A stretch of 39,801 bases of DNA from a virus: the IMG/VR virus record IMGVR_UViG_3300038559_000036; one strand, given 5' to 3'. The notes under the pieces were generated by a model. That model was not told where the DNA came from. It made no database searches and worked only from the letters and a program-made list of their open reading frames with translations. The stretch's first letter is position 1. Each line of letters begins with the position of its first letter. This document shows, one piece after another, positions 1,907 to 39,801 of the stretch. Both the position numbers and the translations under genes were made by a program.

Positions 1907-2039
1907 CGTACAGCTCTCCTCTTTTTTTATATTTTCAAGAAAGTATAGCTTAAATATGCTGACAAGTTAGCAATCTACCGTAAGATATTCAAATTTTGAA
2001 CAGTTAAGGAAACCTCGGAAATTTCAGCAAACAGTTATC

Positions 2040-2074
2040 TTATCCACAGGGTTATTAAAAGATTTTGTGGATAA
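2040..2074. promoter_or_regulatory. Inverted pair of perfect DnaA-box 9-mers upstream of parA
   Basis: TTATCCACA at 2040..2048 and TGTGGATAA (its reverse complement) at 2066..2074, separated by 17 bp. They sit in the divergent intergenic region between 1906 and 2174. Confidence 0.6.
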
Positions 2075-2173
2075 GTTTATTTACAAGAGTGTATTTACTT
2101 TTAATTACTTTTATCTTACGTTAATGCTTATTATAATCATATAAATTTTAAAAACATATAAGTTGGAGTAAAA

Positions 2174-3145
2174 ATGAGTAACGGTACATTGTGTTTATCA
2201 CAAATTAGTAAATTAGTTGGGATGCATGGGGCATGTTTGCATGAAAGAGCAAAAGCTAGAAGAACAAAGACTCAAAAACTGTCAAGGGGGGGACAATACA
2301 AGATTTTATTAACGCCCGAACAAATAAAAAAAATAATACACGATCGATTTAATCCTTTAAGCGGGAAAGTAATTTATATAGGAAATTTAAAAGGTGGGGT
2401 GGGAAAAACTACGTTAGCATATTTAACAATAGAGATGCTATCCACACTAGGTTTAAAAACTTGTGCTATTGATTTAGATATTCAAGCAAATTTAACCAGA
2501 CAATTTGATGGCATAAAAGCAAATCCTCCGGTATTTGCGGACTTGGTAGATAAAAAACTTAAAATAGAAGATATAATAATTAAATTAAGTCCTACTTTAG
2601 ATATTATACCATCTTCGTTGAAAAATGGTTTAATTCAAAAAACGCTATCCCACGAAACACCAAAACATTATTTAACGTGGTTTAATTCATTATGCCTTTC
2701 ATATTTACGATCTAAATATGATGTTATTGTCGTAGATACTCCACCCAGTTTAACCACTCTAAACTCAGTATTTTGTTTGTGTTTACAAAGCACTGATAAT
2801 TTATTGATCCCTGCTTGTGCCGATGAGTTTTCTATAATGGGCATAGAAATGTTTTTAGAAGACGTAAAAACTATCCGTGAATCCTATAAAACCAATTCAG
2901 AACCAAAAACAAGCATACTCATAAATAAATTCTTTCAGAATCAAACTAACAACATAGAAATGTTTGCCAAAATAAGCAAAGCATATCCTAACTTGTTATC
3001 TAAAAATGTAATTAAAGACTGTGCAAAAATAAGAGAAACAACTACCGATAAAAAACATATAGGAGACGCAACCAGAAAATCAGAGCTTTTTGATGTTCTT
3101 GTTACATTATTAAATGAGTTTAATATTTTAAAAAAAGTGAAATAA
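2174..3145 (+). CDS. parA: ParA/Soj-family partition ATPase
   Basis: Deviant Walker A in IGNLKGGVGKTTLAYL and Walker B-like YDVIVVDTPPS. It is 323 aa with a ~65-aa N-terminal extension. A GGAG RBS lies just upstream of the ATG. Confidence 0.9.
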   Translation: MSNGTLCLSQISKLVGMHGACLHERAKARRTKTQKLSRGGQYKILLTPEQIKKIIHDRFNPLSGKVIYIGNLKGGVGKTTLAYLTIEMLSTLGLKTCAIDLDIQANLTRQFDGIKANPPVFADLVDKKLKIEDIIIKLSPTLDIIPSSLKNGLIQKTLSHETPKHYLTWFNSLCLSYLRSKYDVIVVDTPPSLTTLNSVFCLCLQSTDNLLIPACADEFSIMGIEMFLEDVKTIRESYKTNSEPKTSILINKFFQNQTNNIEMFAKISKAYPNLLSKNVIKDCAKIRETTTDKKHIGDATRKSELFDVLVTLLNEFNILKKVK

Positions 3146-3148
3146 ATA

Positions 3149-4582
3149 ATGTCTGTCGATATAGATAAAATCTTAAAAAAAGCTAAAGAATTAAACGCGA
3201 AGAAAAAAAACAAGCCACAATGTAACTCTGTTATTACTGGCTTACCGGCCGAATATAAACCATGGTATCAAGGTGATAACTTTTCTCCTGAAGAAGCTGA
3301 GAAGTTAGAAACCTCTCAGCCGCCGATCATGGAAGTTTTGGTTACGGCGGCCGTTGAGGAAAAAAACTCCCATCAAAATTTACATTTCAAGGAAGATAAC
3401 TTTATGAATCATGACAATGACATAAAAATGGATGAAATTCAACTTAAAACAAACCTAGTACAAACGGAGTACAAACCTAGTACAGGCACAGATCGTACAC
3501 AGATCGTACACAAACGTGATTCAAACTGGAGTCAAAGTGGAGTCAAACTGGAGTCAAAGTGGAGTCAAACTGGAGTCAAACTGGAGTCAAAGTGGAGTCA
3601 AAGTGGAGTCAAAGTGGAGTCCAGATTACTTTCAAAATCAGAAACTGGAGTCAAACTGGAGTCACAACTGGAGTCAAAGTGGAGTCAAAGTGGAGTCAAA
3701 GTGGAGTCAAAACAGCCAAATTACTCCTCGTTAGTTGGGCTTCAAAGAGCTATCATTTTTTTGATTTATTCAGAATGCCAAAAAGCTAGATCTAAGGTTA
3801 CCAATCCATTAACGGTGGAACATATTAAAGATGCCATAAATTGCAAAAAATCCAGCATAAAAGCAGCAATACGGCGGTTAGAAAGAAAACACTGTATATC
3901 CAGAGTTGCTTATAAAAATGGTAAGGGTGGATGGTCAAAATATACTATCCCTGATTTGTTGTTTCATGAGATGCTCCACCTTGAAACTGGAGTCAAAGTG
4001 GAGTCAAAGTGGAGTCAAAGTGGAGTCAAAGTGGAGTCCAAAGTGGAGTCAACCCCCGTTAGTAGTAGTAGTTATATTAATAATAAAAATACTACTACTA
4101 ACGGAAACGAGCTTCCCGAGGAATGGAGGAACATAAATTTAGATCCCTTACAAGATATTGGCTTTTCAGAAAAACATCTTAGACAGATTTTTAATCTTAA
4201 CCTCCCCGATGTAGTCGAGGAATCAATCAAGCATTTTGCATTTGGGCTTTTGAATAATCCAAATGCAAAACAATATACAAATCCGATAAACGTGATAATG
4301 GGAGTTTTACGAAAAGGCCAAGCGTGGGTTGAAAATAATTACAAATCACCACAAGAAATAGCACAACAAGAACTTGCGTCACGAAAAAAAGCAGAAGCGG
4401 AACGCTTAGCAAAACTCGCTCAAGAAATTTATGACGCAGAATTTAAGATATGGGAAAATGGATTATCAGCGGAAGAAATAAAAGCTATTGAGTTTGGAAC
4501 AAAATATTGTGGCCCACTAAAATCTAGGTTAAAAGCATGTTTTAATGAAACCGCATGGGCAACCAAGCAAAACAAACCCTAA
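3149..4582 (+). CDS. Repeat-containing winged-helix DNA-binding protein; candidate replication initiator (or ParB-analogue centromere binder)
   Basis: Starts 4 nt after the parA stop. A central wHTH-like segment (LQRAIIFLIYSEC...IKAAIRRLERKHCISRV, about 3730..3975) is flanked by SKWSQSGVKVE peptide repeats encoded by 11-bp DNA repeats. The C-terminus (NPINVIMGVLRKGQAW) resembles DnaD-like replisome-organiser tails. Confidence 0.6.
   Translation: MSVDIDKILKKAKELNAKKKNKPQCNSVITGLPAEYKPWYQGDNFSPEEAEKLETSQPPIMEVLVTAAVEEKNSHQNLHFKEDNFMNHDNDIKMDEIQLKTNLVQTEYKPSTGTDRTQIVHKRDSNWSQSGVKLESKWSQTGVKLESKWSQSGVKVESRLLSKSETGVKLESQLESKWSQSGVKVESKQPNYSSLVGLQRAIIFLIYSECQKARSKVTNPLTVEHIKDAINCKKSSIKAAIRRLERKHCISRVAYKNGKGGWSKYTIPDLLFHEMLHLETGVKVESKWSQSGVKVESKVESTPVSSSSYINNKNTTTNGNELPEEWRNINLDPLQDIGFSEKHLRQIFNLNLPDVVEESIKHFAFGLLNNPNAKQYTNPINVIMGVLRKGQAWVENNYKSPQEIAQQELASRKKAEAERLAKLAQEIYDAEFKIWENGLSAEEIKAIEFGTKYCGPLKSRLKACFNETAWATKQNKP
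3488..3512. repeat. Two tandem 11-bp units ACAGATCGTAC, each with a GATC site
   Basis: Read directly: acagatcgtac acagatcgtac aca. It lies 15 bp upstream of the main 11-bp array and has the same 11-bp period. Confidence 0.85.
3527..3712. repeat. Iteron-like array: 15 copies of 11-bp TGGAGTCAAAG/C (9 contiguous, 20-bp gap, 6 more)
   Basis: Read directly. Units start at 3527 and recur every 11 bp to 3625, then run from 3646 to 3712, with one 12-bp variant (tggagtcacaac). Confidence 0.95.
3988..4054. repeat. Second iteron-like array: 6 copies of the same 11-bp unit
   Basis: Read directly: tggagtcaaag x4, then tggagtccaaag, then tggagtcaacc. It lies on the far side of the wHTH-coding segment. 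Confidence 0.95.
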
Positions 4583-4780
4583 CCAAGGCCACTTTTATCG
4601 CTTTGTAGCCGCCTTCTTACCCTAACTGCGGCTACCCTAGCGGCCAACTAAAAGAATGGCTAATAAAGCGTTAGGGTGAGTTGGTGTATCTGCACGAATA
4701 GTGACAATTTAGGGAACAGTTTTTGGTAAGTTGATACTGCTGCCCCATATGCTATAGAAAGTTAATAACATAGGAGAAAA

Positions 4781-5053
4781 ATGCTCATGGAAAAAGAACC
4801 ACCACACCCTGGAGAGATATTACTCAGGGAATTTATAGAACCTAACGGCCTTATGCCACACAGATTAGCCAAAGATTTAGGTTGGCCTTATTCAAAATTG
4901 GAAAAGCTTATGGATGGAGAAATAAACCTTACGGTTGATTCTGCCATGGAATTAGCAGAGGTTTTAGATATGGAACCTGATTTTTGGGTAAGCTTACAGG
5001 CCAAATGGAGTAAATGGCATGATAATCAAGCGTTAGTAGACGAGAACCTTTAA
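4781..5053 (+). CDS. higA: HigA-family (XRE-type HTH) antitoxin-like protein, no adjacent HigB
   Basis: PPHPGEILLREFIEPNGL....LAKDLGWPYSKLEKLMDGEINLTVDSAMELAEVL..EPDFWVSLQAKW is the classic HigA/VapI signature. An AGGAG RBS is present. The 200 bp upstream has no ORF that could be higB. Confidence 0.8.
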   Translation: MLMEKEPPHPGEILLREFIEPNGLMPHRLAKDLGWPYSKLEKLMDGEINLTVDSAMELAEVLDMEPDFWVSLQAKWSKWHDNQALVDENL

Positions 5054-5584: not shown

Positions 5585-6087
5585 TTTTTAACCCCAACAA
5601 AGTTATTGTAGTTAGTAATATATTCATCAACAGTAGCTTTACCGCCAGCTGTATTATAATATTTTTTATAGTATTCTGCTTGAAGTTCTAAGGTCTTAGG
5701 GATAGGTTCAGACACCCTATGGTAGTATAATCTTGCCATAGCTGTTGCATAATAAAGATTGTATAGCATAATATTAGCCGTTGGGTTATTAGGAACATTA
5801 CAAAAACTTATTATCTTATCTAGTAAATAATGATTAGATAAATTTAGATGTTTCCAAATGTCATCATGAGTGGCTGATTGCATTTGATAAACCCCGACAG
5901 CCAAAATGTTTTTTTGTAATGATGCATATAAATCAGGATTGGTACCTTCTTGAAATAAATATGTACCGCCTCTGGATTCTTGAGCGCAAGTTCCTACAAG
6001 TAAGTCTTCGGCTTCTTGGCTATAAAGATAAATAGCGCGCAATACTGGTTGGATTATTAGTTGTCTAAACTGTAAGTTATTAAACAT
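5581..6087 (-). CDS. Lytic transglycosylase-like endolysin
   Basis: GTCAQESRGGTYLFQ ... AVGVYQMQSATHDDIW resembles the SLT-type catalytic Glu-Ser motif plus the GlyQ(M/I) motif. It sits at the end of the late operon next to a TM protein. Confidence 0.55.
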   Translation of the reverse strand: MFNNLQFRQLIIQPVLRAIYLYSQEAEDLLVGTCAQESRGGTYLFQEGTNPDLYASLQKNILAVGVYQMQSATHDDIWKHLNLSNHYLLDKIISFCNVPNNPTANIMLYNLYYATAMARLYYHRVSEPIPKTLELQAEYYKKYYNTAGGKATVDEYITNYNNFVGVKK

Positions 6088-6448
6088 TATTTAGGTTCCC
6101 TCCCAAGTACTCTGTAACTGCATCCATTGCCTCATCTAAAGAATAGCATACGACAGCTCTGTAGGCTCTGTCATTTAAATTATTAAGCCATATTTTTTGA
6201 TGTTCGGAAAGGCGGCCTGTTTTAGATTTTAATTCTATAAACAACCCATGAAAGCCATTATAAGGCAAGGCCATGAATAGATCAGGTACTCCAGGCGTAA
6301 CGCCTTGCGCCTTGAGGCTTTTAGCCTCAAGACGATTTCTACTCCCCCCATTAGGGATAGCAAAGGTAACAAGACGTAAGCAGGGGTAAAAACACAGCCA
6401 TTCAAAGAAATCACTTTGGATCTTCTTTTCTGGGATCTGTATGCTCAA
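6080..6448 (-). CDS. VRR-NUC domain nuclease (PD-(D/E)xK)
   Basis: GVTPGVPDLFMALP...GLFIELKSKTGRLSEHQKIWLNNL matches the VRR-NUC D...ExK core plus the Q..W tail. Confidence 0.75.
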   Translation of the reverse strand: MSIQIPEKKIQSDFFEWLCFYPCLRLVTFAIPNGGSRNRLEAKSLKAQGVTPGVPDLFMALPYNGFHGLFIELKSKTGRLSEHQKIWLNNLNDRAYRAVVCYSLDEAMDAVTEYLGGNLNNV

Positions 6449-6450
6449 AC

Positions 6451-6696
6451 CTAATTAGCAGCAGGTGTAGCTATAGCCGAGCTTACAGCGTTTACCACGT
6501 TTTCAGTAGTACCTAAAGCAGCATCAACATCACTAATTACAGTACCAACAGTACCAGGAAGTTTCACTGAATTTAACATATCTAAAATAGATTTAGCTTC
6601 TGCTAAACGTCCTACTAAAGCATTGTGATTAGCAGCACTTTGTTCAATAGCCTGAGCTAATTGAGATACGCGTTCAATTAATGATTGCATTGTCAT
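6451..6696 (-). CDS. Hypothetical small coiled-coil protein
   Basis: 81-aa ORF tightly packed in the late operon. No motif recognised. Confidence 0.5.
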   Translation of the reverse strand: MTMQSLIERVSQLAQAIEQSAANHNALVGRLAEAKSILDMLNSVKLPGTVGTVISDVDAALGTTENVVNAVSSAIATPAAN

Positions 6697-6712
6697 AGTT
6701 ATATTTCCTTAT

Positions 6713-6739
6713 ATAAAAATGCCCTCCATCTTGAAGGGC
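6713..6739 (-). terminator. Rho-independent terminator/attenuator candidate
   Basis: On the minus strand, gcccttcaagatggagggc is followed by atttttat. It lies between genes 6752..7531 and 6451..6696. Confidence 0.45.
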
Positions 6740-6751
6740 GTTAATCGATAA

Positions 6752-7531
6752 TTACACGGCAGGCGTTATTGCGATCCAGCTTACGGTAGTTGCAGCACCA
6801 GGATCGGTGCTAAAACTTACTGTTAATGTACCAGCACCTGGAACTACTTTAGTAATTGAAACAGCGTTAGTAGAGGCTAAAATAGAAGCTGTCACTATAC
6901 TGGTTGCTCCAACGTTAGTTGCTGTATAAGCATTGCTTGTACCACCACCTGCGTATGCAGCAGTAGTTGCAGCATGTAATGTAAATCCAGCATCTTGAAT
7001 TGCACCAACCGTACCAGTTGCTTTAACAACATTTCCACTTACTAAAGCACTAGGAGCTAGCACAAAATTAGCTGTTGTAGCGGCTGGATCGGGAATTGTA
7101 AAAGTCCTAACACCAGCTTGTGAGGCATTCGTTATAGTGGCTGCTGTGTTTCCTGCATTTGAGGTGGCAGCTACAACTAAGTTTCCTCTGTTTGCTGTTG
7201 CTGGGAAAGAAATAAAATCACCAGCTACACCGCTCGATCCTGCCTGGACGTTTCCAGCAAAAGAACCACCGGAGCTGGCTGGGGTTACTAAGCTATAAAC
7301 TAAATTAGGCGCAGTTCCTGTAATAGATATAGCTAGCCAAACTGGACCGCTAGTTGTGTTAACAAGGGCTATTTGACCGTTTGATACAGTTAATAGATTT
7401 TCATGAATTGCTTTAGATAAATATCCTGTTGTTGTCACAGTTGCAACAGAGTCGTTAGTATTTATAAAAACTAGATTAGGAATAACACCGGCTAACCCAG
7501 TAACGCTACTTGTAGCTTGTAAAATTGACAT
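6752..7531 (-). CDS. Ala/Thr/Gly-rich virion-associated protein (fibre-like), function unknown
   Basis: 259-aa ORF in the tail-fibre region. Its composition resembles the neighbouring fibre proteins. Confidence 0.55.
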   Translation of the reverse strand: MSILQATSSVTGLAGVIPNLVFINTNDSVATVTTTGYLSKAIHENLLTVSNGQIALVNTTSGPVWLAISITGTAPNLVYSLVTPASSGGSFAGNVQAGSSGVAGDFISFPATANRGNLVVAATSNAGNTAATITNASQAGVRTFTIPDPAATTANFVLAPSALVSGNVVKATGTVGAIQDAGFTLHAATTAAYAGGGTSNAYTATNVGATSIVTASILASTNAVSITKVVPGAGTLTVSFSTDPGAATTVSWIAITPAV

Positions 7532-7578
7532 CTTTGCCCTCCATGGTTTAGATTAATTTATATTTTATTTGGCAGAAA

Positions 7579-7689
7579 CTATTTTTTCTTTTTAGCAGCT
7601 TTACCTATGCGACCTTCCATTTTGCCACCTTTTTTATTCATTTTTTCTTTCTTTTCGTAAGATTCTTCTTTACGTTCGTGCTTTTTCAT
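7579..7689 (-). CDS. Possible 36-aa highly basic peptide
   Basis: Hand translation gives MKKHERKEESYEKKEKMNKKGGKMEGRIGKAAKKKK. An AGGA lies 8 nt upstream. It is below the track cutoff. Confidence 0.3.
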   Translation of the reverse strand: MKKHERKEESYEKKEKMNKKGGKMEGRIGKAAKKKK

Positions 7690-31725: not shown

Positions 31726-31862
31726 TTTCGTACAATTAAACGATGCTTTTCGTACAATAATTAAGGTTTTCGTACAATTCTTTATCGTTTTCGTATTATG
31801 GATAACAATTTTCGTTAAAGTTGTGCTATTTTCGTACAATTATTTAATTAATTTCGTACTAT
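31726..31862. repeat. Iteron-like array: 7 direct copies of TTTCGTACAAT-like 11-mers spaced 20-22 bp
   Basis: Copies start at 31726, 31748, 31768, 31789, 31810, 31830 and 31852. Four are perfect through TCGTACAAT and three are degenerate. TGGATAAC(C)AAT also occurs twice, at 31714 and 31798. Confidence 0.9.
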
Positions 31863-35289: not shown

Positions 35290-35688
35290 TCATTTACAAA
35301 GCATGCCAATTATTCCGCCTAAACCAGCTATTAAAAATGCCATAATCCAACGGTGGTTAATGCTCATCTCGCTTCTAAGTAAACCAATTTCTGTTTTTAA
35401 GTCTTGTCTTGCTAAATCAAATTTAGAGTCAGTTCTAGTTTCCAGATTGGCAATATCTTGTCTTGCTAAATCAAATTTAAAGTCAGTTCTAGTTTCCAGA
35501 TTGGCAATATCTTTTCTAACTAAATCAAATTTAGAGTCAGTTCTAGTTTCCAGATGTTGTAAATATTCTTTAGTTGCCAAATGACTAATAGCATTATCAA
35601 ATGCCATTGCTTGATTAAATGCTTGTTCGTCTGGTATTCCTGCTTTAACTAATTCATGGTAATAAACTAATGCGTTTGATGTTGCCAT
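35290..35688 (-). CDS. DUF1640-like coiled-coil protein with C-terminal TM anchor and 18-aa tandem repeats (paralogue 5 of 6)
   Basis: MATSNALVYYHELVKAGIPDEQAFNQA...HLATKEYLQHLE, then ETRTDSKFDL(V/A)R(K/Q)DIANL about 3 times, then the TM tail IMAFLIAGLGGIIGML. ATG 35688 is preferred because it has the same GGGGGATTGAAT leader as paralogue 6. Confidence 0.75.
   Translation of the reverse strand: MATSNALVYYHELVKAGIPDEQAFNQAMAFDNAISHLATKEYLQHLETRTDSKFDLVRKDIANLETRTDFKFDLARQDIANLETRTDSKFDLARQDLKTEIGLLRSEMSINHRWIMAFLIAGLGGIIGMLCK
35403..35554. repeat. 54-bp tandem repeat, 2.8 copies, inside paralogue 5
   Basis: Units start at 35403, 35457 and 35511. Read directly, with a few substitutions. Confidence 0.9.
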
Positions 35689-35704
35689 ATTCAATCCCCC
35701 TTTT

Positions 35705-38404: not shown

Positions 38405-39124
38405 TTAATGTCTGCTTTTTTGTTGTTCTAAGATTTTCCTAAGATAAGCCCCCTTGTTTTTTATTTGGATCCCTTTTTTCTTTTCGTGTTCTCTCATAGC
38501 TACAATTATTTCAGTTAGTGCAGTAAACCCAAACTCGTTAACCCACCTATCTACCGATTTCTTATTTACCTTCATCATCAACAAATCATTTTTTATATCA
38601 ATTTGTTGCTCTTTAATCATATGATTTTTATTTAATGATTGTGATATATGATTATGGGTGGGCGCTGTGACTACAGCCCCCCTGGTCTCTCTGGGTACAG
38701 CTCCTATGTTCTCTGGGACTATAGGTAAAGAATTATCCACAGGGTTATACATAGAAATTGGCATGTTATCCACATAGTTATCCACAGCGTCAGTATAAGT
38801 AGGCATTTGAATAGCTACGTGCCTTGGAAGTAACGACAGGTTAATTTTATATTCGTTAGCTTTATGCGTTTGACTGTTGCCCTGCTTTATTAAAACTATC
38901 CGTTTTTTATCTAATAAAGCTTTTATAGTTCGTTGAATAGTACTCTTAGAAAACTTAAGTTCAGCAACTAGAGTGTTAAGGCCAGGATAAATATTAGTTC
39001 CGTCCTCGCTGGCATATAAGGCCATCCTGGCGTAAACAGCGGTCTCAATTCCTGTTAGTCGATACTTCCCATTAGAATCCTTGGCCTGGTCGCGAAATGC
39101 AGCCAGCATTAACATAAAACACAT
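38405..39124 (-). CDS. Replication initiation/organiser protein (N-terminal winged HTH, C-terminal DnaD-like tail) containing DnaA boxes
   Basis: LTGIETAVYARMALYASEDGTNIYPGLNTLVAELKFSKSTIQRTIKALLDKKRIV is wHTH-like. The C-terminal VDRWVNEFGFTALTEIIVAMREHEKKKGIQIKNKGAYLRKIL follows the DnaD/DnaB_2 pattern (W....g.....i..A........i.n..aYl..IL). Confidence 0.6.
   Translation of the reverse strand: MCFMLMLAAFRDQAKDSNGKYRLTGIETAVYARMALYASEDGTNIYPGLNTLVAELKFSKSTIQRTIKALLDKKRIVLIKQGNSQTHKANEYKINLSLLPRHVAIQMPTYTDAVDNYVDNMPISMYNPVDNSLPIVPENIGAVPRETRGAVVTAPTHNHISQSLNKNHMIKEQQIDIKNDLLMMKVNKKSVDRWVNEFGFTALTEIIVAMREHEKKKGIQIKNKGAYLRKILEQQKSRH
38733..38786 (+). promoter_or_regulatory. Three perfect direct DnaA-box 9-mers TTATCCACA inside the replication-protein gene
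   Basis: Boxes at 38733..38741, 38766..38774 and 38778..38786, read directly. On the minus strand they encode the VDN(Y/M/S) repeats of the protein. Confidence 0.6.
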
Positions 39125-39402: not shown

Positions 39403-39801
39403 ACTTGCTGCTCTTGATGGTTGTATCCGTTATGACTCTAAATATTCAATACCCATAACGGATGTGATTTAACCATCAGCTTATTATAATAATTCTTGTT
39501 CAAATATGAACAATTAAAAAGTTTGTTAATGTTTTATAACTTGCTGCTCTTGATGGTTGTATCCGTTATGACTCTAAATATTCAATACCCATAACGGATG
39601 TGATTTAACCATCAGCTTATTATAATAATTCTTGTTCAAATATGAACAATTAAAAAGTTTGTTAATGTTTTATAACTTGCTGCTCTTGATGGTTGTATCC
39701 GTTATGACTCTAAATATTCAATACCCATAACGGATGTGATTTAACCATCAGCTTATTATAATAATTCTTGTTCAAATATGAACAATTAAAAAGTTTGTTA
39801 A
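39403..39801. repeat. 136-bp tandem repeat array (2.9 copies in window, continues into 1..119)
   Basis: The unit landmark TTGTATCCGT recurs at 39421, 39557 and 39693, exactly 136 bp apart, and the copies look identical. Each unit holds nested inverted repeats (cttgatggtt/aaccatcag, atccgttatg/cataacggat) and the palindrome ttgttca-aata-tgaacaa. Confidence 0.95.

Follow-up and report, generated by a model that had tools for sequence, protein, structure and literature searches.

The stretch of DNA considered here, referred to as the window, is 39,801 nucleotides of virus DNA from the IMG/VR record IMGVR_UViG_3300038559_000036. Directly after a parA gene it carries a gene for a 477-amino acid protein with a winged helix-turn-helix (wHTH) domain, and two dense arrays of an 11-bp direct repeat lie inside this second gene. 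The arrays and the AT-rich inverted repeat that follows them are probably an iteron origin embedded in the gene of its own initiator, built like lambda O and ori-lambda and probably also serving ParA-driven partition. The features of the locus are as follows.

2040 to 2074, one box on the plus strand at 2040 and one on the minus strand at 2066: two perfect DnaA boxes (TTATCCACA) in inverted orientation, 100-134 bp upstream of parA.
2174 to 3145, plus strand: parA, encoding a Walker-type partition ATPase of 323 amino acids with a 60-amino acid N-terminal extension (Pfam AAA_31, 9.8e-30, and CbiA; PHROG 164, ParA-like, 2.9e-39).
3149 to 4582, plus strand: gene of the 477-amino acid wHTH protein, a putative initiator and ParA partner, starting 3 nucleotides past the end of parA.
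3161 to 3205, plus strand: N-terminal lysine-rich helix, residues 5-19 (DIDKILKKAKELNAK), a candidate ParA-contact peptide; helical in the AlphaFold2 model, with the motif kept in distant homologues.
3449 to 3484, plus strand: 3.3 copies of ACAAACCTAGT, an 11-bp repeat detected by TRF and of the iteron type of a sister lineage (AGTACAAACCT; L011, P0003).
3487 to 3512, plus strand: 2.4 copies of CACAGATCGTA, a second heterologous 11-bp unit detected by TRF, expanded in L004/P0005 and in the 488-amino acid variants of the window protein.
3527 to 3625, plus strand: array 1a, nine copies of TGGAGTCAAAS at exactly 11 bp.
3646 to 3712, plus strand: array 1b, six copies with one 12-bp step.
3716 to 3988, plus strand: wHTH DNA-binding domain, residues 190-280 (AlphaFold2 pLDDT above 90; weak Pfam wHTH matches at residues 218-258; PHROG 428, 'replication initiation protein', 1.1e-5).
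3988 to 4054, plus strand: array 2, six copies of the TGGAGTCAAAS unit.
4056 to 4104, no strand assigned: inverted repeat CCGTT(AGT)4-TATATTAATAATAAAAAT-(ACT)3AACGG, with a 15-bp stem and an AT-only loop, directly 3' of array 2; a candidate DNA-unwinding or hairpin element.
4106 to 4579, plus strand: all-alpha C-terminal domain, residues 320-477 (AlphaFold2 pLDDT 95 when modelled alone), the best-conserved part of the family.

The heptamer TGGAGTC, counted on both strands of the whole 39.8 kb, occurs 21 times, always on the plus strand and always inside the 477-amino acid open reading frame (ORF; 3149-4582). Fifteen copies lie in 3527-3712 and six in 3988-4054, as had been reported by a model that saw only the letters and their ORFs (here the sequence-only reading); in the same scan there were none on the minus strand and none outside the two arrays. 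With up to one mismatch allowed, 18 instances of the full TGGAGTCAAAS are found against 0.86 expected, a number that none of 100 shuffles reaches. The repeat unit as first described holds for the core, which is present in all 21 copies, but not for the 3' tail, which deviates at 3615 (TGGAGTCCAGA), 3657 (TGGAGTCACAA) and 4032 (TGGAGTCCAAA). Similarly, the claim of an exact 11-bp period stands for most steps from copy to copy and fails at a single gap of 31 bp, between 3615 and 3646, and at two steps of 12 bp.

The copies use all three codon phases, and the ORF translation bears out the SKWSQSGVKVE-type 11-amino acid repeats that had been read from them. It had also been pointed out that the other two plus-strand frames are open over the arrays (ORFs 3516-3734, 3559-3789 and 3906-4136). 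They are, and this is a trivial outcome, because the repeat unit has no stop triplet in any phase; the alternative frames were rejected as genes. The two arrays are about 290 bp apart and adjoin the wHTH segment on both sides, and the AlphaFold2 model, built with 64 homologues, places the wHTH between them, as had been claimed. Residues 22-186, whose coding DNA includes array 1, and residues 282-318, whose coding DNA includes array 2 and the SSSS…TTT linker, are predicted to be disordered; both arrays would therefore encode disordered linkers that abut the DNA-binding domain. The two minor repeats at 3449-3512 may be recombination scars or cross-reacting sites.

Evidence on what has been selected comes from relatives of the gene. 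A protein database search returned 71 homologues, all of them unnamed or 'hypothetical'. DNA for homologues was drawn from viral contigs, GTDB genomes and PLSDB plasmids, and 35 homologous loci were compared (Legionella, Rickettsiella, Coxiellaceae, Piscirickettsia, Bdellovibrio and phage contigs). The sequence-only reading had proposed that such an alignment be examined for conservation of the unit at the nucleotide level. The peptide is not kept; each homologue brings a nucleotide unit of its own, which flanks the wHTH as a heptamer repeated before and after the domain at 10-12, 22-24 or 33-36 bp. The lineage heptamers include TGGAGTC, GATCCAA, ACTCAAA, AGTACAA, GACAACA, AGATAAC, AGATATC, GGTTCAA, ATCCGTT, GTGCAAA, GGGTTCA and AGACAAA, among others. 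Across the 35 loci, the commonest upstream heptamer is present at a mean of 1.4 copies in its own downstream linker, compared with 0.06 in the linkers of other loci. Pooled spacings (n = 312) fall at 10-12 bp in 193 cases, at 22-24 bp in 61 and at 33-36 bp in 34. The spacing of the arrays is a multiple of the DNA helical repeat and not of the codon. Some clades have 12-bp units, which stay in frame, and the window clade has 11-bp units.

The repeats also follow the wHTH domain. Locus L003, whose wHTH is the nearest to that of the window (68% identical), has the nearest unit as well (TGGATCCAAAG compared with TGGAGTCAAAG in the window). When the parts of the protein are compared separately with those of the window, P0004 agrees at 27% in the N-terminus, 100% in the wHTH and 21% in the C-domain, and its repeats are the same. 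P0006 agrees at 43%, 45% and 100%, respectively, and its repeats are different; in P0002, P0003, P0005, P0011 and P0012 the N-terminus agrees at 97-100%, the wHTH at 35-67% and the C-domain at 22-82%, again with different repeats. On this comparison, array, wHTH and array are exchanged as a block cassette. Direct repeats specific to their own Rep protein, a mark of iteron-type theta replicons, thus seem to be present here, with 21 copies and lineage-specific units that co-vary with the wHTH. Most lineage units end at the 3' side in CAA(A)S after a variable 5' half (TGGAGTCAAAG, TGGATCCAAAG, AGTACTCAAAC, GACAACAAAC, GGGTTCAAAC, AGATAACAA, AGATATCA, TAGGTATCAAT), which suggests one conserved and one variable protein-DNA contact.

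Two further observations concern the relation of the DNA unit to coding. Firstly, in the AGTACAAACCT arrays every third unit is AGTACAAACGG, exactly in the phase where CCTAGT would make an in-frame TAG; this swap indicates that the DNA unit is primary and that coding is the constraint. Secondly, the arrays need not be coding at all. In locus L029 the whole cis module is intergenic: a segment upstream of parA that contains no ORF has ATCAATTAGGT at 11-bp spacing in arrays of 12 and 7 copies, followed by GCCCCTCT-(AGT)4-ATATATAAATATATA-(ACT)3. The 361-amino acid gene of this locus has no internal arrays. Three more loci (L028, L033 and L035) are like L029 but degenerate, and in the Legionella and Rickettsiella loci the heptamer of the in-gene arrays also forms a third array, upstream of parA. 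The earlier proposal that selection acts on the DNA and that the protein tolerates the encoded inserts is therefore strongly supported by the lineages' own nucleotide units, the helical spacing, the non-coding arrays of one relative and the predicted disorder. From the comparison of loci, the repeats almost certainly act in cis as sites for the wHTH that the gene encodes.

The number of copies varies. Among intact proteins that cluster at 90% identity, the arrays are longer or shorter by exactly 11 or 22 amino acids, giving length sets of 477/488/466, 501/490/512 and 456/434 amino acids. Several nearly identical genomes, each of about 39 kb, have the gene broken by a frameshift in array 1, with a copy number of 2 (L059), 8 (L060) or 28 (L002, variant locus at 6001-7598) where the window has 15; relative to L004, L061 is short of four ACTCAAA units, a loss of 44 bp that breaks the frame. 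Array 2 is constant at six copies across these array 1 variants. All such variants were drawn from short-read assemblies, in which arrays of this kind can collapse, and the frame-breaking ones may reflect either real slippage or assembly collapse. The sequence-only reading had asked whether copy number would change in steps of 11 rather than 33 bp: frame-breaking variants do change by other amounts, such as the 44 bp just mentioned, whereas intact variants change by 33 or 66 bp.

Such variants, found in several of the genomes of about 39 kb, together with the disorder of the encoded segments, might be taken to mean that the arrays have no cis function and are either a slippage-prone minisatellite, possibly an on/off contingency locus, or a repeat with a role at the protein level. 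A repeat of the peptide would give no ground for a sub-period of 11 nucleotides. Moreover, unrelated units occupy the same two positions in homologues that are 27-40% identical, and always match between the arrays; the arrays of L029 are intergenic; and every third AGTACAAACCT unit is altered just where a stop would arise. An absence of cis function is, in view of this, very hard to credit.

The inverted repeat behind array 2 is also kept as DNA. At 4056-4104 it is translated as VSSSSYINNKNTTTNG, corresponding to the conserved linker of the family, SSSSYINNKNTTT. In about 30 loci each homologous gene has a single element of the form (AGT)n-N-(ACT)n, always directly after array 2 except in L029, where it is intergenic. 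Serine in the linker runs is encoded by AGT in 92 of 101 codons, compared with 86 of 500 elsewhere in the genes (Fisher 3.5e-47), and threonine by ACT in 77 of 83 codons, compared with 143 of 443 elsewhere (Fisher 2.4e-26); since the loci are related, these p-values overstate independence. AGT and ACT are reverse complements, so the 'SSSS…TTT' peptide motif amounts to an inverted repeat that is conserved as DNA, and the linker of the family is, judging from its codons, the DNA element (AGT)n–AT-rich–(ACT)n. As single-stranded DNA the inverted repeat of the window folds at -16.2 kcal/mol (z = -8.6). The segment 4061-4099 is 82% A+T and begins 7 bp past array 2. An AT-rich element beside the iterons, the second mark of an iteron replicon, is hence found here and conserved at the DNA level across the family; its role in unwinding is putative. 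Array 2 with the AT-rich inverted repeat is favoured as the core of the origin.

The arms of this repeat resemble a known unwinding element. The bacterial basal unwinding system consists of a DnaA box, a GC spacer, DnaA-trios (3'-GAT-5') and AT-rich DNA (PMC8287927). The left arm of the window repeat, T(TAG)4 at 4060-4072, contains four tandem 3'-GAT-5' trios, preceded by the GC cluster CCCCCG and followed by AT-only DNA, and the right arm has (TAG)3 on the other strand; at least three tandem trios, the number expected of a basal unwinding element, are thus present. A scan of the window found no DnaA box near 4056 (within 16 bp of the trios), where the basal unwinding system has its box and the window has an iteron array, and the trios run in the canonical direction only as seen from the middle of the inverted repeat, and not as seen from the array. 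The resemblance is to the motif only. Membership in the DnaA-trio system was rejected, as the anchoring DnaA box and the orientation are lacking, and the likeness is kept as a lead.

The position of the inverted repeat invites a division of labour, in which array 2 and the inverted repeat form the origin core while array 1 and, in relatives, the arrays upstream of parA act as copy-number and incompatibility sites that titrate or handcuff the initiator, like incA of P1. Array 2 always abuts the inverted repeat, with array 1 lying on the far side of the wHTH segment; array 1 varies among near-identical genomes (2, 8, 15 and 28 copies) and array 2 stays at six; relatives have distant extra arrays; and incC and incA of P1 offer a precedent. 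In L029, however, both arrays stand together just upstream of the inverted repeat, and the differences in copy number, coming from short-read assemblies, may be repeat collapse. Such a split is improbable.

Whether the protein is an initiator was examined by sequence and fold. There is no Pfam or NCBIfam model for it, and the Pfam wHTH matches are sub-threshold only. When 64 family members were scanned, matches were obtained to PHROG families annotated as 'replication initiation protein', 'replication initiation O-like' and 'DnaD-like helicase loader' (PHROG 428, 678, 391, 270 and 186; best 3.7e-8; up to 23 of the 64 members), and no ParB family was matched in Pfam or PHROG. Foldseek against the BFVD viral models gave the N-terminal part of lambda GpO, a replisome organizer, DnaD and a replication initiator as best matches (E 4e-6 to 1e-3). 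The wHTH and the helical C-terminal region thus show a remote likeness, in sequence and in fold, to phage O-like and DnaD-like initiators, and on these searches the 477-amino acid protein resembles them. The domain is a MarR/ArsR-like wHTH and has neither the ParB/Srx-HTH nor the ribbon-helix-helix (RHH) fold. Identification with a known structure was tried and dropped, as a PDB profile search and PDB Foldseek with the whole model returned only generic MarR/ArsR wHTH proteins; for the C-terminal domain, no fold relative was found in the PDB (best E 4.5). The family has no RepA_N or RepC match in Pfam, and neither blastn of 2000-4700 nor tblastn of the protein found anything in INPHARED.

The link to parA is strict. 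A ParA ORF lies immediately upstream of the homologue in 35 of 35 loci, after a gap of about 3-26 nucleotides or a short overlap in most of them and 480 nucleotides in one. Three loci at first seemed to lack ParA because the Walker-A pattern was too strict; their actual motifs are KGGVLKS or KGGTLKT. The nearest NCBIfam models to the window ParA are repABC RepA, PrgP and SopA, all below cutoff. None of the loci examined showed a ParB-like gene beside parA. Identity between ParA proteins tracks identity in the first 40 residues of the partner (Spearman 0.77) more closely than in the wHTH (0.55) or the C-domain (0.46); L011 and the window share 83% in the C-domain compared with 29% in ParA and 10% in the N-terminus. 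This is consistent with the N-terminal lysine-rich helix being a ParA-contact peptide, and physical adjacency on the DNA would give the same signal. The DnaA-box pair upstream of parA is kept at the same place in L003, L004 and L011, and L009 has seven perfect DnaA boxes in about 200 bp (4615-4819) at a position equivalent to the window pair. A near-iteron, TGGAGTaAAA, at 2163-2172 overlaps the Shine-Dalgarno sequence and start of parA, and is a possible autoregulatory site or a GGAG coincidence.

This arrangement could also be that of a partition system alone, in which the 477-amino acid protein would be a new wHTH centromere-binding partner of ParA (a functional ParB) and the arrays a centromere with autoregulation; arrays upstream of parA in relatives would have the same role. 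The protein does have some features of a ParB analogue, being encoded directly downstream of parA in one operon in every locus, with repeated sites at the operon both inside the gene and upstream of parA (Legionella and Rickettsiella clades, L029), the third array recalling type Ib parC. No other candidate for ParB stands beside parA, the lysine-rich helix is conserved and co-varies with ParA, phasing at 11-12 bp is that of R1 parC and tubC, and the module is often found inside a stability cluster of resolvase, ParA, the gene and toxin/antitoxin. Replication would then start elsewhere: on the plasmids, from an unrecognised Rep or RNA-primed origins, and in the phage, from a second initiator-like gene. 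Such a gene exists in the window at 38405-39124 on the minus strand, encoding a weakly O/DnaD-like wHTH protein of 239 amino acids (HTH_36, 7.8e-8; DnaD_N, 3.8e-4), and the ORF contains three perfect DnaA boxes (38733, 38766 and 38778), a trio also present in L003 and L004. Against a centromere alone, homology and fold favour initiators and not ParB, RHH or TubR proteins, the conserved AT-rich inverted repeat has no obvious role at a centromere, and the large conserved C-terminal domain would be unexplained. In addition, one Piscirickettsia salmonis phage-plasmid (NZ_CP039084.1, L052) has, besides its ParA-homologue pair at 1-2446, a second ParA locus with a 210-amino acid hypothetical protein at 45638-47326, which could be the true partition system. 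A purely centromeric function is, on balance, the less likely reading and the main rival of the origin. The sequence-only reading had offered an origin iteron or a centromere for the parA module: cis-acting sites are well supported; homology, the adjoining inverted repeat and the lack of another recognisable Rep on three plasmids speak for an origin, and the operon with parA in every locus speaks for partition too.

The distribution of the gene on plasmids bears on the same choice. Among GTDB genomes the hosts of homologues are Legionella, Rickettsiella, Coxiellaceae, Aquirickettsiella and some Bdellovibrionota and alphaproteobacterial metagenome-assembled genomes. In PLSDB, 113 P. salmonis, 18 Legionella and 3 Bdellovibrio plasmids carry a homologue, always annotated as 'hypothetical protein'. 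By annotation and Pfam scans, no other recognisable Rep was found on three backbones that carry the parA-gene pair.

pBdHAGR4: Bdellovibrio plasmid of 11.9 kb with the pair and no other recognisable Rep.
pLPL: F-type conjugative plasmid of L. pneumophila Lens with the pair and no Rep in annotation or Pfam scans.
P. salmonis plasmids: phage-plasmids ridden with insertion sequences, with the pair and no other recognisable Rep.

For the P. salmonis LF-89 plasmids pPSLF89-1, -2 and -3, a published study reports that neither an initiator of replication nor an origin or iterons could be recognised (PMC6963756); pPSLF89-3 contains a homologue of the 477-amino acid protein. The unannotated module is the only initiator-like candidate found on pLPL and on the Piscirickettsia and Bdellovibrio plasmids, and these backbones are a further difficulty for a centromere alone. 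A small closed plasmid consisting of parA and the gene alone was considered and rejected, since the P0047 contigs are fragments (resolvase, ParA, the gene and toxin/antitoxin) and not circles. Cumulative GC skew, raw and detrended, tracks gene orientation; it does not decide between origin and centromere and was set aside as an origin locator.

The in-gene origin is favoured because of the initiator-like homology, the iteron and AT-rich anatomy, the DnaA boxes at the operon and the three backbones with no other recognisable Rep. Several points weigh against it. The curated Pfam initiator models stay below their gathering thresholds (DnaD_N in 8 of 64 members, best 0.004; Phage_rep_O in 2 of 64, 0.013), and a C-terminal domain that recruits replication factors is a guess, there being no recognisable fold relative. 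The tight operon with parA is the classic position of ParB, and the DnaA boxes at 2040/2066 are 1.45 kb from array 1, upstream of parA. A 7-nucleotide core at 11-bp spacing is denser than the iterons of characterised Rep proteins (about 17-22 bp) and closer to the R1 parC or tubC centromeres. The minimum of GC skew is beside parA in pLPL alone; in the window, in pBdHAGR4 and in the P. salmonis plasmid it lies elsewhere. Annotation and Pfam scans would miss unknown Rep families and RNA-primed origins, either of which these plasmids may have, and the 239-amino acid gene is a candidate for a second, possibly lytic, origin-in-gene and could be the real origin. Binding, unwinding, origin firing or autonomous replication, and interaction with ParA are steps that we infer.

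If the gene does contain an origin, its working may be pictured in terms of three exchangeable modules. The first would be parA with the N-terminal lysine-rich peptide of its partner; the second, the specificity cassette of array 1, wHTH coding segment and array 2; and the third, the GC cluster and (AGT)n–AT-rich–(ACT)n inverted repeat together with the conserved C-terminal domain behind them. Monomers of the protein would coat both helically phased arrays on one face of the DNA, and the arrays, being about 290 bp apart, could be bridged or wrapped. Strain would pass to the adjoining AT-rich inverted repeat and lead to melting or extrusion, after which the C-terminal domain would recruit host replication factors; participation of DnaA is suggested by the boxes upstream of parA. 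The result would be the plasmid-state origin of a non-integrating phage-plasmid, on the plan of lambda O and ori-lambda. Since this gene is the sole partner of ParA in every locus, and no ParB-like gene was found beside parA, the same nucleoprotein complex most likely also serves partition, probably as the cargo or centromere of ParA, contacted through the N-terminal peptide. Translation of the iterons would be the price of an in-gene origin, tolerated because the encoded linkers are disordered and the unit has no stop triplet in any phase.

It is tempting to go further and combine all of these elements: one protein as initiator and ParA adaptor, one set of iterons as origin and centromere, opening at DnaA-trio-type (TAG)n arms around an AT-only core, and array, wHTH and array as a portable specificity cassette. 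This fuller scheme is tentative. If true, it would amount to a plasmid version of the chromosomal basal unwinding system in which a Rep protein, instead of DnaA boxes, is the anchor, and the cassette would let co-resident phage-plasmids escape incompatibility.

Parts of this design are known from other replicons. Lambda, too, has its origin within the initiator gene, in the linker that comes behind the DNA-binding domain, with an AT-rich stretch and an inverted repeat following the iterons; in lambdoid O/ori pairs the iterons and the DNA-binding domain likewise co-vary and are exchanged while the C-terminal domain is common. The wHTH of the present family gives sub-threshold matches that are both O-like and DnaD_N-like. 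The four iterons of lambda measure about 19 bp, have dyad symmetry and all lie to one side of the domain, whereas the window has a 7-nucleotide core in 21 direct copies at 11 bp on both sides. Further differences from lambda are that the gene has no adjacent P-like helicase loader, is obligatorily coupled to parA and encodes a C-domain unrelated by sequence or fold search.

RepA_N plasmids (pAD1 RepA, pCF10 PrgW) and repABC RepC also have an origin in a poorly conserved, repeat-bearing centre of the rep gene, in a replicon tied to a ParA-family ATPase, and it is repABC RepA and PrgP that stand among the nearest models to the window ParA. These systems have a separate centromere-binding protein (pAD1 RepC, PrgO, repABC RepB), of which the window module has none, and their proteins belong to different families. 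PMC3155836 reports an in-gene origin for repC.

R1 parC with ParR (two clusters of five 11-bp iterons) and tubC with TubR (12-bp repeats) are similar to the window in having two clusters of direct repeats at the helical turn. Their repeats are bound by the product encoded downstream of the partition NTPase, as the in-gene arrays would be, and TubR is also a winged-helix protein. In contrast to the window, those sites are intergenic, the NTPases are ParM and TubZ instead of a Walker ParA, ParR and TubR are small and lack an initiator-like C-terminal domain, and no AT-rich inverted repeat adjoins the repeats. P1, like the window, is a phage-plasmid with iteron arrays on both sides of the initiator coding region, DnaA boxes and a second, separate initiator-like gene (the P1 lytic replicon, with oriL inside repL). 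Its incC and incA flank the whole repA gene with 19-bp units, whereas the window arrays are in-gene at 11 bp, and P1 has canonical ParB and parS, unlike the window module.

In-gene origins (lambda O, RepA_N plasmids, repC, P1 repL) and helically phased centromeres (R1 parC, tubC) are therefore already known, and the remark in the sequence-only reading on a lack of precedent applies to the 11-bp density and the flanking of the DNA-binding domain, but not to origins within genes. Literature on in-gene 11-bp iteron origins, Legionella phage-plasmids and pLPL replication yielded no description of the family. No published description was found of the protein family, of dense 11-bp arrays read in three phases and flanking a DNA-binding domain, of an (AGT)n/(ACT)n element kept as DNA beneath a peptide linker, or of ParA coupling with no ParB.

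The remainder of the window is that of a tailed phage, with large and small terminase, portal, major head protein, head closure protein, RecE/RecT, a methylase and VRR-NUC. The scans turned up no integrase among its ORFs of at least 100 amino acids, which fits a plasmid-prophage lifestyle. The next gene 3' of the 477-amino acid protein (4781-5053) encodes a 90-amino acid XRE-type HTH protein, and no helicase loader (lambda P-like or DnaC-like) was found beside the gene or in the scanned ORFs. Three other tandem repeats were noted. At 39403-39801, reaching the end of the window, a 136-bp unit is present in 2.9 copies at 100% identity, each with its own inverted repeat (GATGGTTGTATCCGTTATG…CATAACGGATGTGATTTAACCATC); this could be a packaging or origin element, or terminal or assembly redundancy. 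A 54-bp unit is repeated 2.9 times (95% matches) at 35402-35555 in the minus-strand ORF 35290-35694, and a 20-21-bp unit 2.5 times at 31726-31795.

The probable in-gene origin has several implications. To our knowledge, few phages have been described for Legionellales-like hosts, and the module would be a concrete candidate for the missing replicon of pLPL and of the P. salmonis plasmids, with the Bdellovibrio plasmids included and the phage-plasmids of about 40 kb from such hosts also covered. A defined minimal replicon would be useful for vectors in Legionella, Piscirickettsia, Rickettsiella and Bdellovibrio. The gene is also a clear natural case of dual coding, in which an 11-bp DNA signal runs through all three frames, helical spacing is kept at the expense of the peptide, and unit variants stand at would-be stops; the 'SSSS…TTT' linker is a warning against taking low-complexity protein motifs for protein features. 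As ParB is universally absent, the functions of initiator and partition adaptor may be fused in this family.

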